A stretch of 17,197 nucleotides of DNA, the filler included, from Kondoa subrosea (lineage: Eukaryota), in the NCBI GenBank assembly GCA_039545335.1. It is 10 parts of 10 records of this genome, joined end to end, with 100 filler letters (N's around TTAATTAATTAA, not from the genome) between each part and the next. Parts side by side here need not be neighbours in the genome. Positions count along the whole stretch, not along the records: positions 11,996 to 13,484 come from BCIN01000024.1; 9 more parts are not named here. The stretch is one strand, 5' to 3'. The translations under genes and the position numbers were made by a program. Below the pieces are notes generated by a model. It was given only the letters and a program-made list of their open reading frames with translations, was not told the DNA's origin and did no database searches. This document shows, piece after piece, positions 88-13,484 of the stretch (positions are counted from its first letter, which is position 1; every line of letters starts with the position of its first letter).

Positions 88-1777
88 TTAAATAGGGCTA
101 GCCATCAAACCGGTAGGTCNGCCAGAAGGTGATGTACTGGTCAGCTGAATTATAGGCGGAGGGGGCATGCAAAGCTTGGACAGATCTTTTTCGATTGCCG
201 CAGTGTGAGGTGATTGGGGTGCAGGTTGTGTGAAATAAGGGTGCAGCAATGCTCGCTTGGCGCTAATACGAGACGGTGGATCATACTTCATGATTCGCTG
301 TGTAGAGCAACTCAGCATGACGATAGACAAAGTTCAACGGATCTTACATTAAAGAGGTCAAGTCCGTTAGAATCAAGGTTTGTCAGAATATCGTTGACTT
401 TGCCTGGTTTCCAGTGCGGGAAAACGGGTTGATAATCTGATAAAGGCTTGTCAGCTAGAGTTTCAGCAATGAAAGCTCGCACTAACCAGGTAGCTGCGTT
501 AGACCGGGCCACATTGCTTCTGTCGGTGTTCCAAAGGTTCTGCCCAGTCATCTTAGCGAACCCTAGCACACTGCCACTAATGAGACGCACTGGAAAGTCT
601 TGAGCAACTGTCCTATCTCAGAGTCACCAGCGAGTAAAGGACACCCTGTGACCCTTTGGAGAACAATGAGCTCTCAGAGATCTAATTGATCGGAGCCAAT
701 CTCACATTTCAGCAAAAATAGCGCCACAAGACCACATGTCGATCGAAGATGCGTAATGTCGAGTGCCCAGAAGAACTTCCGGGCCTCGATACCAAAGAGT
801 GACAATCTAAAACCGCTTCAAATGTCAGAATATGTTTTGCATGACATCTGGCTTGAACAAACCTCATGAGTGTAGGTTCTTAAAGGAATTCCAAAGCATC
901 TCGCCAGACCGAAATCAGCAATCTTTAATGTTCCGGTCGAGTCAATGAGCTGTGGTAAACCATGTCAGCGGTGCGAACATCCACGCAGACGAAGAAGCGC
1001 ACCAAGTTTTGAGGTTTCTACCGCAGCGCAAGTCAGTCAATAGTCAAGTCAAGATTAGTCATACGCACTAAATCTCGATGCAAAATACGCCTTTGATGTA
1101 TGAACAGGCAGCCCAGCAGCAGCTGATACATGAATTTCTGCAGAGCAAAGGTGTCAATCACAGGGCCAGTACGGTTGTCGCCCCTCGAGCCATACCTTTG
1201 CAAGGTCTGCAGGCAACGCTCGATGCTGAAAGATGGATGAACGATTGTTGGCATCGGCTACTAGAGGTGTCAGAGATGCCGCTTTCCTCTCTCCGACAAT
1301 GTCCATGTATTTCTTGAGGTCCATGTCCAAGAATTCGCAGACCAACACCAATTTCGAATCAGAGTGAATAACGTCCAATAGTCTTTGAAGTAGAGTAAGC
1401 GCTAATCTTCAAAGAGATCACATGAGCATACCGAACGATATTCTGACCTCCATCGACGATGCCCATAGCCGCATTCTCGTCTGCAATACTGCAACATTCC
1501 TTCAAAAGCGAAATTTCCCTCACAGCTGTCGACGGAACACCTTCATCTACTTCCTCCAGCCTGATCTTCTTCAAAGCGACAATTCGACCGGTAGGAATGT
1601 GCTTGGCTTTCGTGACGACTCCATAAGTGCCTGTTTGTAGAAATCTTGTTTAGTTTTCAACGCTGCTCGAGCGCGTATTACAGACCTTCGCCAATCTTTT
1701 CCTGTGTATGTTCTGCATCAGCTGCGCCTTATTGCGTTGAAGAAACAGGAACATACCATTCGAGTATAGGCATCCAT
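88..1777 (-). CDS. CDK1: Cyclin-dependent kinase, CDK1/Cdc2/Cdc28 family, divergent (PSTAVRE); complete, 12 exons
   Basis: Manual splicing at GT-AG introns gives [22 protein letters not shown]...[27 protein letters not shown]...[29 protein letters not shown]...|KFMYQLL...[55 protein letters not shown]...[60 protein letters not shown]...|[22 protein letters not shown]...stop. ATG at 1777-1775, TAA at 90-88; short exons at 1757-1777, 1686-1701 and 1003-1017. The family call is firm; strict orthology to CDK1 is less so. Confidence 0.93.
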
Positions 1778-4757: not shown

Positions 4758-5531
4758 GGTTTCTAGTGCACTGTACAACGTAACAGTCTACCCATCAGCC
4801 ATAAGACTGAAGAGATGTTGTGTCATGCGTACCTATGTTCATATGGTAATGAATTACACCATGTTGATCGAAGATTATGCTGTTCGCGAATCGGCCTAGT
4901 TAAGTACACATTGTACAACATGTCCAACTCTCACGAACCTGAAGATTGTATACAAAGGAAGAATGTAAAGAAGAATCCGCTCCTAGGGTATGGAAAAGCC
5001 AAATCTCTTTTGGTTTGATGAGAGCGCGAATATGAAGTATATTGACCTGTCAGATTCCAGTGACGCGTATCAGATACATTCTGATGCAGTCACTCTGGGA
5101 CTGACCAGTATGCACTGCTTCCTGACTAGAATTGCAGGTACAGCATTTGGGATAGCGGAATCGATTTTCCTCCAAATCTCTAGCCTGTCGTCCAACCTAA
5201 CCTATTAATCAGCCTTACACTAAGTAAGAGTAGACTATCGACCGACCTGCGACCCATGTTTTGCGAATAATTCACCCTCTTTGGATACGCCTTCAATAAA
5301 TCGCATGTTGCTCTGGGGTGATGAGCAGTACATCGCAACGAAGGTTTGCTTGACGAGACAGGAGAGCGAAAAGGAGTTCATGTAAAGAGAAGAGGCCATG
5401 CTGCGACTTAAAAAATATTTGCTACTGATGCGAAATCTAACTGAGCCGGAACTGTACGTTTTAGGAGGATCAGAAATCAAAAATTGGGGCACAGACGGTA
5501 CTAACAGCAGGTCGTCTCTGTATCTTGACAT
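4758..5531 (-). CDS. MRS2: Mrs2/Lpe10 (CorA family) Mg2+ channel, N-terminal half, spliced; start uncertain (ATG 5531 or 5399)
   Basis: Spliced translation ...ELFAKHGSQ|(ARDL)RKIDSAIPNAVPAILVRKQCIL|VNILHIRALIKPKEIWLFHTLGADSSLHSSFVYNLQ|HNLRSTWCNSLPYEHS|ALET matches the Mrs2 pattern HGLxPRDLRKID...ILVR...LVNLLHIRALIK...LPYEFRALE. One extra G at about 5172-5173 breaks ARDL-RKID if the acceptor at 5185 is used. Confidence 0.85.
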
Positions 5532-10398: not shown

Positions 10399-11895
10399 AA
10401 GCCTGAAGCTTCTGCTCTGTACATCGAACAAACTCCTGAACGCAAAGTAAGCTCTTCCATAGCATCCGCTCGGTTTCAACTTATGTACTTGCAAATTTCA
10501 GGTCGCTGCTCAGATTGAGTTCTACCTCAGTGATCACAACCTTCCCTTTGACAAATTCCTCTTCGAAACAACTCAAGGAACTCTCGCTTCCGATGTACAA
10601 ACTTCTGCACCAGGAACAGGCTGGATTGCATTGACGACTTTACTTTCCTTCAAACGAATGAAACCTTTCCAAGAACTTGGTCTCGCCAAAGTAGCTCAAG
10701 CAGTTCGAGATTATTCTTCTGATTTAATGGAAGTCAACCCTGAAGGAACCAAAGTGAAAAGAACGAGACCGATTGCTGCTTTACCTTACGGAGAAGTTTT
10801 GAATCGTTCGATTTATGCTAAAGGATTTCCTTCTGAGAATGAGGTTGATGATTTGCAAGAAAAGCTGGAAAACTGGTTCAGACAGTTCGGTAGAGTGAAT
10901 CAAGTTAGAATGAGGAGAGAAGGCGGAAACGCTACAGAAGGTGCTAGCAGCAGAACTTTCAAGGTCAGTCAGGCACTTTACCTTAAGGCGATATATGACT
11001 GAGATGGGATCCACCTGACAGGGCTCAGTCTTTTGTGAATTCGCTACACCCGAAATCGCGAAATCTTTCGTTGCAATTGAACCCAAACCAACTTTCCCTC
11101 TTATCATGACTGAACCTATCATTTCAATGATGAAGTGAGTGTTCCTCATGATCAAGTGGAATTGTCTCTCATCAATGACCGCAGGCAAGATTTCATGGAC
11201 ATGAAAGTGAAGGAAAAGGGCATTGATACAAGCAAGCGTCCGTCAAAAGAAGAAGAACAGCGTAAACCCAATTCATTCAATGCCTTCAAGGTCTTGAGGG
11301 AAGCAAAGTACAGCAAAGATAACAAAGACCGTCCTGCAGGTCGACATGACAGAAGAGATGACAATCGAGAACGTCGACCAAAAACGGCTGAAGATATTCC
11401 CGAATCAGAATTGGAAGTCAAGTACTCTGGAGAGTCATACAAGATTGATCGAGAAGGCAATGTCGTTGATCCGGAAAGCATCAAATTCAAGTCTGACATG
11501 ATTTTGACTTTTACTGGCGTTGGCGATGGATCTGTAAACTATTCTGCTTTCAAACAATCGATTTTCGATAACATTGGACCTGCTTTTGTCAAGTTGCCGC
11601 ATGAGGCGAAAGAAGGCACTTGCGCATTCAAAGAAACTCTTTCGGATGAGAAGTTGACTAAATTGCAAGATTTGAAGATCAAATTGGGTGATGCTGAAGA
11701 ACCATTAACATGGACGAGGATGTCAGGTTAGCTTTCCTGCCTTGAGGGCTTGGCGTACGGTGTGCTTACAAGGTTTTTATTGATAGGCGAAGATGAANGT
11801 GCATATCATGTCGCACAGGCCAACTTCTTTGGACAAAAAAGCATCGATGAGAAGCTAGGTCGAGGCAAAGACAAAAGTGGATCAAGAGGAGGTCG
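10399..11895 (+). CDS. LHP1: La protein (Lhp1/Sla1): La motif, RRM1 and a second C-terminal RRM; partial at both ends
   Basis: KPEASALYIEQTPERK|VAAQIEFYLSDHNLPFDKFLF...GWIALTTLLSFKRMKPF...LMEVNPEGTKVKRTRP (La motif); NRSIYAKGFP...FGRVNQVRMRR...FK|GSVFCEFAT (RRM1); ILTFTGVG...AFKQSI...FVKL...GTCAF...LTWTRMS|GEDEXAY (RRM2-like). Introns at about 10447-10501, 10963-11020, 11135-11184 and 11727-11786. Confidence 0.92.
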
Positions 11896-11995: not shown

Positions 11996-12427
11996 AAGTA
12001 CAGCATTGCAGTACAATTTGTGGTGCAGAGGCTTGCTACTTTGTACAGCTGGGTGCGAAAGCAATGTAAACATGCTCGTTCACAACTTAAAGACGAGCAG
12101 CTCTCTTGTCTAGAATCATCCACTGCCCTGTCTTATAGCAGCTCTCCTATGGAAACAGCTATGAAATTCCTGGCAGCAATCCCATCGCGATCCTCTTCCT
12201 CCCTGGACACATGGAGTAAGTGCAATTGTTTGCATTGCTGAAACTCCTTGGCTAATCCTGTCGAGCTCTCAACAGGTCACTCGATCGATCAGATGGGAGA
12301 GCCAGGACAGACGTGAAGGGGCCCGTCGTGAGCGGAAGCAACCACATCCGTTCTGCATGGTGCTCTCCCTTCTGAGATAGATCTGGGAACAAAGACTGGC
12401 TAATCCAGGTCTCCCGAGATCTCCATA

Positions 12428-12509
12428 TGGACGACATGGACAACTGGACGACATGAACGATTGGACAACTATGGACGACTGGACAACTGGACGACTGGAC
12501 GACTACGAC
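12428..12509. repeat. Short tandem repeat, unit TGGAC(G/A)AC, about 9 copies
   Basis: tggacgac-a-tggacaac-tggacgac-a-tgaacgat-tggacaac-ta-tggacgac-tggacaac-tggacgac-tggacgac-tacgac. Confidence 0.9.
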
Positions 12510-12697
12510 ACAGCAAGGGGAACAAGCTCTCTTCTCGGCNAAGGGAAGCGCTGCTCTCTTCTCAGTAACCCTTCTGCTTGTTCTTTTCTAGCTTTGTTCC
12601 TTCTCGGACAGACGTCTGCATATGGTAACAGAGATATAGCATAACCAAAAAGACGCAAGAGCAAAGCAGTCGTTCTATCAAATCCTACCATGACTGC

Positions 12698-13222
12698 TTA
12701 TTCACGAGTAAACTGAGTGTGATGATAGCTGATCAGCTCACTGCGCGTATACCTGATGTGGAATCGAGTGGAAGTTGAAGACAGAAAGCCAGACATTGAA
12801 ATGCCCCTTGACCTCGAACGAAGATTCAGCGTCGATATCTTGGCCACTGGTACATCACGTGCTATCTCTGGCTGTGCTGTGTATGCGCAATAAATGAAGA
12901 CTGCAGACAGGTCGAATTCGCTGTCGTTGCAGGAGTCTATTGAACTTTCAGCTCCTGAAGAACATCGTTGGAACTCAGACTATGCGCAACGAAGATACAA
13001 TGACCGTTGCTGTTGACTACTGCTGAGAACTTGGGCTTTGCTTTTATTTCCCACCACTGCCTGCGAATTCTTGACTCTGACCAAATGATGCTTCTGATGC
13101 AATTCATATCAATGGCTAGCTCGATTAGATGTATCCTTTTGAACCTCTCACCCTGAATCGCCGAGCATCTTTCGTTTCCCGAGCTGGTCTTGCATGACAT
13201 TTTCTGAACGTTTCTCATCCAT
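12698..13222 (-). CDS. Possible small spliced hypothetical gene
   Basis: The ATG at 13222 can be joined through two GT-AG introns to a TAA at 12700-12698 (MDEKRSENV...DSG|SIIWSE...VNSN|GAESSIDSC...FTRE). The second donor (GTCATT) is weak and no domain is recognised. Confidence 0.25.
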
Positions 13223-13327
13223 CAATCAATACCTATCTCTAACTATCTATGTCGGGACTCATCTGTAATCGTAACATGACCCTGTCCACAACCCATTACG
13301 TGCAACACCCCCATGCAAAAAAGTAGC

Positions 13328-13332
13328 AAAAA
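13328..13332 (-). terminator. Oligo-T tract (Pol III terminator-like) directly after the tRNA
   Basis: TTTTT immediately follows G73; a T6 run lies a few bases further downstream. Confidence 0.6.
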
Positions 13333-13484
13333 CGACCACCCATAGGATTGAACTACTGGAAGGATGTCAGGTATGAAACCACTTTGTGTGCAGACAGGTA
13401 ACTCACTGGACCTCCCGATTAACAGTCGGACGCTCTAACCAGCTCTGAAAGAGGATATGGGTTAGGGATGCGCTAGAAAGAAAA
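13333..13484 (-). tRNA. tRNA-Asn(GTT), 5'-truncated, interrupted by spliceosomal-type introns (exons 13407-13444 and 13333-13355)
   Basis: Joined exons read AGCTGGTTA GAGC G TCCGA CTGTTAA TCGGG AGGTC CA|TAG TTCAATC CTATG GGTGGTC G: D loop, D-stem 3' strand, anticodon arm (GTT at 13423-13421), 5-nt variable loop, perfect T arm, 7-nt acceptor strand and G73. The insert 13356-13406 is GTGAGT...CTGAC...CCAG. The upstream 13445-13484 ends CTAAC...pyrimidine tract...CAG. Confidence 0.88.

Follow-up and report, generated by a model that had tools for sequence, protein, structure and literature searches.

Can the gene of a transfer RNA (tRNA) carry introns of the type that the spliceosome removes from messenger RNA (mRNA) precursors? 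The question is raised by a locus on the minus strand of a stretch of DNA from Kondoa subrosea (GenBank assembly GCA_039545335.1), in which the body of a tRNA-Asn(GTT) gene is interrupted in the T stem by 51 nucleotides (nt) that begin with GT and end with AG. The whole stretch, referred to here as the window, has a length of 17,197 nt and consists of ten contigs of 1.1-2.3 kb joined by N44-TTAATTAATTAA-N44 linkers; the locus belongs to the contig at 11996-13484 (BCIN01000024.1), and its features are collected in Table 1. Nuclear tRNA introns are located at position 37/38 and are substrates of the tRNA splicing endonuclease and a ligase. The features described below point to real nuclear tRNA-Asn(GTT) genes with spliceosomal-type introns, analogous to the introns of fungal U6 small nuclear RNA (snRNA) genes, and the probability of this reading is estimated at about one half. 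The visible locus would then be the 3' two-thirds of a tRNA-Asn(GTT) gene with U2-type GT-AG introns: a complete intron of 51 nt in the T stem (50/51) and a second one in the D loop, most consistently at 15/16, with the 5' exon expected just upstream of the visible sequence.

The T-stem insert and the mRNA introns of the window

Removal of the GT...AG insert (13406-13356) gives a T stem, CATAG/CTATG, in which all pairs are Watson-Crick and which directly follows a variable loop of 5 nt. The T arm, with its stem of 5 base pairs (bp), its TTCRANY loop and its G53-C61 pair, is absent from the genomic sequence and forms only after the excision. When all excisions were enumerated, an excision shifted by 1 nt (AG...CA) was also found to be legal, with a stem CGTAG/CTATG that contains one G.U pair; because this shifted excision also restores a legal stem, the T-stem junction is not strictly unique. 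In exon 3, a B-box-like element, AGTTCAATCC, is intact, and the T runs that follow G73 are presumably terminator-like signals for RNA polymerase III (Pol III). A 5-nt direct repeat, TCCAG, is located at 13410-13406, where it spans the exon-intron junction, and at 13360-13356, where it forms the last five bases of the insert. This repeat may be the footprint of an insertion or may have arisen by chance.

When the sequence was read again, all of the elements listed in the first-pass annotation of this DNA were present at the positions given there, on the minus strand. The T arm with five of five Watson-Crick pairs, which it had rebuilt by GT...AG excision, was recovered in the same form, to which the legal alternative shifted by 1 nt has to be added. 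The absence of an intron at 37/38, also claimed there, agrees with an anticodon loop (CTGTTAA) that is continuous.

Table 1. Features of the candidate tRNA-Asn(GTT) locus on the contig at 11996-13484 (window coordinates, tRNA position numbering).
Feature	Coordinates	Strand	Remarks
5'-most stretch TTTTCTTTCTAGCGCATCCCTAACCCATATCCTCTTTCAG	13484-13445	-	putative first-intron 3' part, up to contig end
Visible part (42 nt) of putative first intron	13484-13443	-	pyrimidine-rich, no GT, ends CAG/AG, cut by contig end
Branch-site-like CTAAC of putative D-loop intron	13465-13461	-	18-20 nt before acceptor
D loop AGCTGGTTA	13444-13436	-	canonical form
D-stem 3' strand GAGC, then G26	13435-13432, 13431	-	canonical form
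Anticodon arm TCCGA-CTGTTAA-TCGGG	13430-13414	-	5-bp stem, 7-nt loop, T33, purine at 37
Anticodon GTT (Asn)	13423-13421	-	in loop CTGTTAA
Variable loop AGGTC	13413-13409	-	5 nt
C49 A50 of T stem	13408-13407	-	directly 5' of insert
Insert of 51 nt, spliceosomal type	13406-13356	-	between tRNA positions 50 and 51
Donor consensus GTGAGT	13406-13401	-	matches GTRAGT
Branch-site consensus CTGAC	13370-13366	-	branch A 12 nt before acceptor
Acceptor CAG	13358-13356	-	insert ends TCCAG
T51 A52 G53, T loop TTCAATC, T-stem 3' strand CTATG	13355-13341	-	
Acceptor-stem 3' strand GGTGGTC	13340-13334	-	
Discriminator G73	13333	-	
T5 run, then GCTAC, then T6 run	13332-13328; 13322-13317	-	Pol III-terminator-like
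Exon 2, C16 to A50 (predicted)	13442-13407	-	A14, G15 (13444-13443) added if upstream AG is the acceptor
Exon 3, T51 to G73 (predicted)	13355-13333	-	

The claim that the size and signals of the insert match those of mRNA introns in the window was borne out by nine introns of a CDK-like kinase gene at 91-1631 (minus strand), which was mapped with the homologues P0002 and P0003. Removal of these nine GT-AG introns leaves one uninterrupted frame of 357 amino acids, with 97% identity to P0002 and 80% to P0003. The introns are 49, 58, 51, 53, 56, 52, 51, 50, and 50 nt long; their donors are GTATGC, GTATGG, GTGCGT, GTGCGC, GTTTGT, GTGAGA, GTGCGT, GTTAGT, and GTAAGA, and their acceptors are CAG (five introns), TAG (two), and AAG (two). 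The length of the tRNA insert falls near the centre of these values, and its splice signals are better than average. The kinase gene itself contains a lineage-specific insertion common only to the metatranscriptome proteins P0002, P0003, and P0006, and its closest named homologues, at approximately 58% identity, come from diverse Basidiomycota, which places this poorly sampled fungus only roughly, as a probable basidiomycete.

For a wider comparison, an acceptor signature was defined as an AG with the branch A of a CTRAY motif 10-25 nt upstream. It occurs at 145 of the 30824 window positions (0.47%) and at four of the nine verified kinase acceptors, and it is present at the T-stem insert, on the D-loop side of the same locus, and on the D-loop side of a paralog described below. 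A strict donor-branch-acceptor pattern was found six times in the window compared with 1.7 times in shuffled sequences, and the T-stem insert is one of the six. The set of signals thus goes beyond coincidence. As far as length and signals in the DNA are concerned, the T-stem insert is indistinguishable from the organism's own mRNA introns.

The D-loop side, the second copy and the 5' part

On the 5' side of the visible tRNA, the match to the canonical form begins at A14 G15 C16, and the preceding ...CCCTAACCCATATCCTCTTTCAG differs from TAGCTC. The acceptor of a putative D-loop intron can be placed after 13445, with the exon starting from A14, or after 13443, with the exon starting from C16, and only the latter option also fits the paralog. 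Both copies are accommodated by one reading only, a predicted intron at 15/16 that is preceded by an exon 1 ending in ...GCTCAG. The donor of this intron would need to lie beyond the contig end, because the visible 42 nt contain no GT; given the local intron lengths of 49-58 nt, it would be found approximately 7-16 nt past 13484.

The surroundings of the locus were followed in an assembly graph, matched at 90% likeness, which consists of the contigs of two DNA runs; these runs share one sample, from which the assembly itself was probably made. One unbranched unitig of 1443 nt, with a depth of 287 and 0 differences, contains the insert together with the exons on either side of it, and the second run gives the same in 1446 nt. 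The insert is therefore not a scaffolding artefact. A node of 33 nt (13409-13441) with a depth of 463 is common to this locus (depth 287-305) and to a second locus (depth 135-158). On the minus strand, the latter reads TAAAATCACGTTTCTGACATCCTCTGAAG up to the D-loop site and then TTGGTTAGAGCG, TCCGA, CTGTTAA, TCGGG, AGGTC, GTTAG, TTCAAAC, CTAAC, TTGAATC, G, and TTTTT. In this paralog, the T arm GTTAG-TTCAAAC-CTAAC has no insert and is followed by TTGAATC-G-TTTTT. Its tRNA similarity ends, on the 5' side, at the same D-loop site (...TTTCTGACATCCTCTGAAG before TTGGTTAGAGCG) behind CTGAC...GAAG, and a GAAG acceptor is plausible because AAG acceptors are used in two of the nine kinase introns. As regards an uninterrupted tRNA-Asn gene, which had been raised in the first-pass annotation, the paralog supplies an intact T arm, and no canonical copy with this body is present in the graph: the only two 5'-ward unitigs of the shared node are unbranched (73 nt and 1171 nt), with no branch to the canonical 5' part TAGCTCAG, and TAGCTCAG is thus joined to this body at no locus. 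The depth of the contig, 287, is about twice that of the long contigs (about 143), and at 13484, the path forks into a contig of 21.7 kb and one of 405 nt. The tRNA-bearing segment (11996-13484) is probably present twice in the genome or was collapsed from two haplotypes.

Uninterrupted genes for comparison were obtained from metagenome contigs, which were scanned with the 33-nt body (13441-13409). All 30 loci found were called uninterrupted tRNA-Asn(GTT) genes by ARAGORN, with an identical anticodon arm in 30/30, and they have the form N7-TA-GCTC-AG[C/T]-TGGTTAGAGCG... (N7-TA-GCTC-AG[C/T]-TGGTTAG). None of the 30 metagenome loci that share the 33-mer is interrupted, so the interruption is peculiar to this organism. 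Many of these loci (L005-L013, L017-L019, L022, L025) belong to marine contigs on which 2-6 tRNA genes are crowded together. Crowding of this kind is typically seen in large viruses or organelle-like genomes.

After eight exact duplicates had been dropped, 22 distinct canonical genes remained for the alignment. Both copies match, after excision, all 42 columns that are invariant in these genes; 33 of the 42 were fixed by the search pattern, which leaves nine independent columns (A14, G15, G53, T54, T55, C56, A58, C61, and G73), and these are conserved 9/9 in both copies. The 11 differences between the copies all fall in stems or at variable loop positions: position 16, T-loop position 59, five acceptor-stem positions, and four T-stem positions. 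The last four make up two pairs in which the changes compensate each other fully (C49-G65 versus G49-C65 and A50-T64 versus T50-A64), and both pairs, 49:65 and 50:64, bridge the insert in the present copy. G73 is directly followed by T5 in both copies, and a T6 run is added in this one.

The inserts were also compared with one another. A 10-mer, CTGACATCCT, is common to the T-stem insert and the D-loop insert of the paralog (p about 0.0025 against shuffles), and the corresponding values are p 0.92 for the T insert against the D insert of the same locus and p 0.08 for this D insert against that of the paralog. The motif CTGACAT is found in the T insert (13370-13361), in the D-loop insert of the paralog, and in the kinase introns at 862-807 and 1002-950. 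Its recurrence suggests a longer branch-site consensus in this organism. A common origin of the three inserts was kept only as a weak hint, since CTGACAT also occurs in two of the nine kinase introns.

The visible tRNA spans positions 14-73, and the contig stops at 13484, 40 nt upstream of A14. Although the tRNA-Asn features listed in the first-pass annotation are real, the gene that it described is incomplete, and the absence of positions 1-13 was overlooked there. The acceptor 5' strand, T8 A9, and the D-stem 5' strand GCTC were found neither in the contig nor in the rest of the window, where strings of the form G[AG]CC[AG]CC-NN-GCTC or TRGCTCAGGT do not occur. The end at 13484 overlaps no other contig of the window, and motif scans of the window found no other split tRNA pieces. 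A locus-specific 43-mer had 0 matches in a genome contig collection, and a degenerate pattern of the tRNA-Asn body with a donor at 51 had 0 matches in a viral contig collection. With positions 1-13 absent from the window, ARAGORN reports 0 tRNA genes there, and Rfam gives no tRNA match at the gathering threshold or at E<=10. When a hypothetical 5' exon (the acceptor complement and TA-GCTC) was supplied, ARAGORN called the spliced form and the paralog tRNA-Asn(GTT) and rejected the unspliced form; this result shows only that the parts present are of tRNA grade. A covariance model (R1) built from the 22 canonical genes gave a 38-bit match at 13454-13378, which was rejected as driven by the identical body. 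The alternative cloverleaf pairing that it implies, CCTCTTT/AAAGTGG, is due to chance, as 25% of shuffles reach 6/7 pairs.

Predicted processing and competing explanations

According to the proposed mechanism, the gene would be transcribed, likely by Pol III, as suggested by the intact B-box-like AGTTCAATCC and by the T5/T6 runs after G73 (T5 in the paralog). The spliceosome would recognise GTGAGT, CTGAC, and CAG and remove the inserts with lariat formation. The T arm and the D arm would fold only after splicing, and RNase P, RNase Z, and the CCA-adding enzyme would then finish the tRNA. In the spliced RNA, the T-stem junction would be expected as ...GGAGGTCCA/TAGTTCAATCC... (also written ...GGGAGGTCCA/TAGTTCAATCC...) and the D-loop junction as ...GCTCAG/CTGGTTAG.... 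An extension of this mechanism, tentative and somewhat short of an even chance, is that in this fungal lineage no tRNA-Asn(GTT) gene is free of spliceosomal introns, with the D loop split in all copies and the T stem split as well in the present one.

Several points weigh against spliceosomal-type introns at this locus. The locus is known from DNA alone, so that transcription, splicing, and aminoacylation are predictions. The 5' exon (acceptor 5' strand, T8 A9, GCTC, and AG) is seen for neither copy. The double depth, together with a fork inside the putative first intron, means that at least one copy could lack the 5' exon. The two runs do not confirm the locus independently, because both derive from a single sample, to which the assembly probably goes back as well, and the 3' side of the paralog is a single unitig of 60 nt in one of the two runs. 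The negative result from the graph covers this body only, and an intact isodecoder with a different body may be located elsewhere. As the paralog has no T-stem insert, the present copy is not needed for the supply of tRNA-Asn as far as the T-stem intron is concerned. Finally, the D-loop intron would lie within the A box and so divide it, and the TTTT at the start of its visible part could weaken or stop Pol III.

The same observations can be arranged in other ways. It is rather unlikely, though the uninterrupted T arm of the paralog speaks for it, that the locus is a dead copy, formerly a normal gene, whose T stem was hit by an intron-like sequence (for example, a reverse-spliced intron that was copied into DNA again, or an introner-type element), with tRNA-Asn being made from the paralog or other genes. 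The TCCAG repeat at both ends of the insert could be the footprint of such an insertion, the shared 10-mer CTGACATCCT hints at intron movement, and the locus lies in a segment of two-fold depth. Yet the exons are without decay (9/9 independent positions, the Watson-Crick T stem, G73, and T5/T6 are all kept), and the insert has better splice signals than the average intron, while the 10-mer is largely the extended branch-site consensus that is also present as CTGACAT in two of the nine kinase introns. Splicing of tRNA-Asn would be needed even under this explanation, since the D loop of the paralog has an interruption, too. Quite unlikely, too, are 5'-truncated tRNA fragments that lack positions 1-15, either as remnants of a repeated or duplicated segment or as tRNA-like 3' modules of other transcripts, with the upstream CTRAY...AG signals being due to chance or serving as acceptors of unrelated transcripts of RNA polymerase II (Pol II). 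Such fragments would explain why the 5' exon was not found, why the contig of two-fold depth forks 40 nt upstream of the tRNA part, and why tRNA finders and Rfam report nothing. On the other side, similarity breaks off at one and the same D-loop site in two loci with different T stems and acceptor strands, in each case behind a branch-plus-AG signature that is found at <1% of positions. Where the copies differ, conserved positions are spared and the T-stem changes compensate each other, which is unexpected for neutral remnants, and G73 is in both cases directly followed by T5. Moreover, the graph contains no uninterrupted gene with this body, yet a tRNA-Asn(GTT) is needed.

The other arrangements concern the nature of the junctions. 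An endonuclease-type intron at a non-canonical position, cut at a bulge-helix-bulge (BHB) motif with GT-AG ends that are coincidental, is very improbable. According to PMC3978253, BHB-dependent systems do include introns in the D and T arms; in addition, the shifted AG...CA excision gives a legal T stem, and one of 16 registers passes a relaxed BHB test. This register, however, has weak A-U/G-U pairs and flanking helices of 1-2 bp, and the test lets 12.5% of shuffled inserts through, whereas the shifted excision passes in 0/16 registers and the minimum-free-energy fold is without a BHB. In fungi, the enzyme is known to act at 37/38, while the insert is at 50/51 and the anticodon loop is continuous; full spliceosomal signals and the local intron length would have no role in such a model. 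Even less probable is an assembly artefact, in which the repeated tRNA body would have led to a chimeric join or the insert would have been put together wrongly. The assembly is indeed of low contiguity, with unitig-like contigs, and in the graph, the tRNA body forms a repeat node, but the unbranched unitig of 1443 nt (depth 287, 0 differences) is matched by that of the second run (1446 nt), and the depths pair as 287/305 and 158/135 on the two sides of the 33-nt node, the length of which is below that of a read. A permuted gene was rejected: the 433 nt downstream contain no TRGCNC motif, the 3' half ends in T runs, and the best partner that the acceptor strand has among the downstream 7-mers relies on four G.U pairs and lacks TA-GCTC behind it. 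A split gene with its 5' half at a distant locus may also be considered. The spliceosomal-type reading proposed in the first-pass annotation is partly supported: its sequence-level claim holds and is strengthened by the putative D-loop acceptor, by the paralog, and by the lack of a canonical copy with this body in the graph.

Known systems, consequences and other features of the window

The U6 snRNA of fission yeast is a Pol III transcript with an mRNA-type intron, and Tani and Ohshima reportedly showed that U6 precursors are spliced by the spliceosome. These introns resemble the one described here in that a GT-AG intron of approximately 50 nt lies in a structured, Pol III-type fungal RNA gene at a site that has no relation to an endonuclease motif. 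They differ in that the host here is a tRNA, with apparently two introns per gene, and is known from DNA alone. The usual explanation of their origin, by reverse splicing into an RNA located at the catalytic centre, is not directly applicable, because a tRNA is no component of the spliceosome. In PMC5855946 (2018), U6 introns in Schizosaccharomyces pombe and other fungi are attributed to Tani and Ohshima 1989 and 1991 and to Canzler et al. 2016, and mRNA-type introns are listed for U6, U2, U5, U1, and rRNA genes, with tRNA not among the genes of that list. The review further reports spliceosomal introns for ascomycete ribosomal DNA (rDNA) and, in Rhodotorula hasegawae, for the snRNA genes U1, U2, and U5, and it gives 30-90 bp as the normal spacing of the A and B boxes. 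These snRNA and rDNA cases are also spliceosomal introns in fungal non-coding RNA genes, including those of basidiomycete yeasts, so intron gain is not confined to mRNAs; their hosts, in contrast, are transcripts of Pol II or RNA polymerase I.

Three intron classes in eukaryotes are described in PMC12530127. All known disrupted tRNA genes, found in Archaea, Cyanidioschyzon merolae, and nucleomorphs, are BHB-based according to PMC3978253. BHB introns and split and permuted tRNA genes share with the present locus interruptions of the D and T arms, several interruptions per gene, and invisibility to standard tRNA finders. Unlike the present locus, they need a BHB and an endonuclease, whereas here GT-AG ends and a branch site are found, with no convincing BHB and no downstream 5' half. 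The introns at 37/38 that are cut by the SEN/TSEN endonuclease are likewise intervening sequences in nuclear tRNA genes, the removal of which is required before function; here, the positions are 50/51 and about 15/16, the signals are different, and so, presumably, is the machinery. The remark in the first-pass annotation that its author was not aware of mRNA-type introns as an established feature of tRNA genes is in line with the literature: no report of spliceosomal introns in tRNA genes was found in the full-text literature searched, with subscription journals and bioRxiv supplements excepted.

If RNA confirms the locus, mRNA-type introns in small non-coding RNA genes would extend to tRNA genes, and a new tRNA splicing route would be added. 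The substrates of the spliceosome would then include tRNA precursors that are probably made by Pol III and are unable to fold unspliced. Such a route would be a third tRNA splicing pathway beside that of the endonuclease and ligase and organellar self-splicing. If every tRNA-Asn(GTT) gene of this lineage is interrupted, AAC and AAU codons could be read, and translation as a whole could proceed, only with a spliceosome that processes a tRNA precursor, and translation capacity would be tied to splicing. A hidden class of tRNA genes, unseen by tRNAscan-SE, ARAGORN, and Rfam, would also imply a blind spot in all standard tRNA annotation, and fungal isoacceptors that are apparently missing could be hidden in such a way. 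A two-intron gene beside a one-intron paralog would further provide a natural system in which intron gain in short structured genes can be studied.

Other parts of the window yielded minor observations. The seven open reading frames (ORFs) of the contig at 11996-13484 have no Pfam match, and a protein search found no relatives of an ORF of 313 amino acids. The last 95 nt of the contig at 13585-14841 are identical to the first 95 nt of the contig at 10399-11895, so these two contigs are genomic neighbours. A gene for a La-domain protein is located at 10463-11731 on the plus strand (Pfam La, E 3e-14), and this protein has one match, at 30% identity, in a collection of 5.8 billion proteins. At 5011-5086 on the plus strand, a weak match to a C/D-box small nucleolar RNA (SNORD49 model, 20.8 bits, E 0.46, below the gathering score) has recognisable TGATGA and CTGA boxes.

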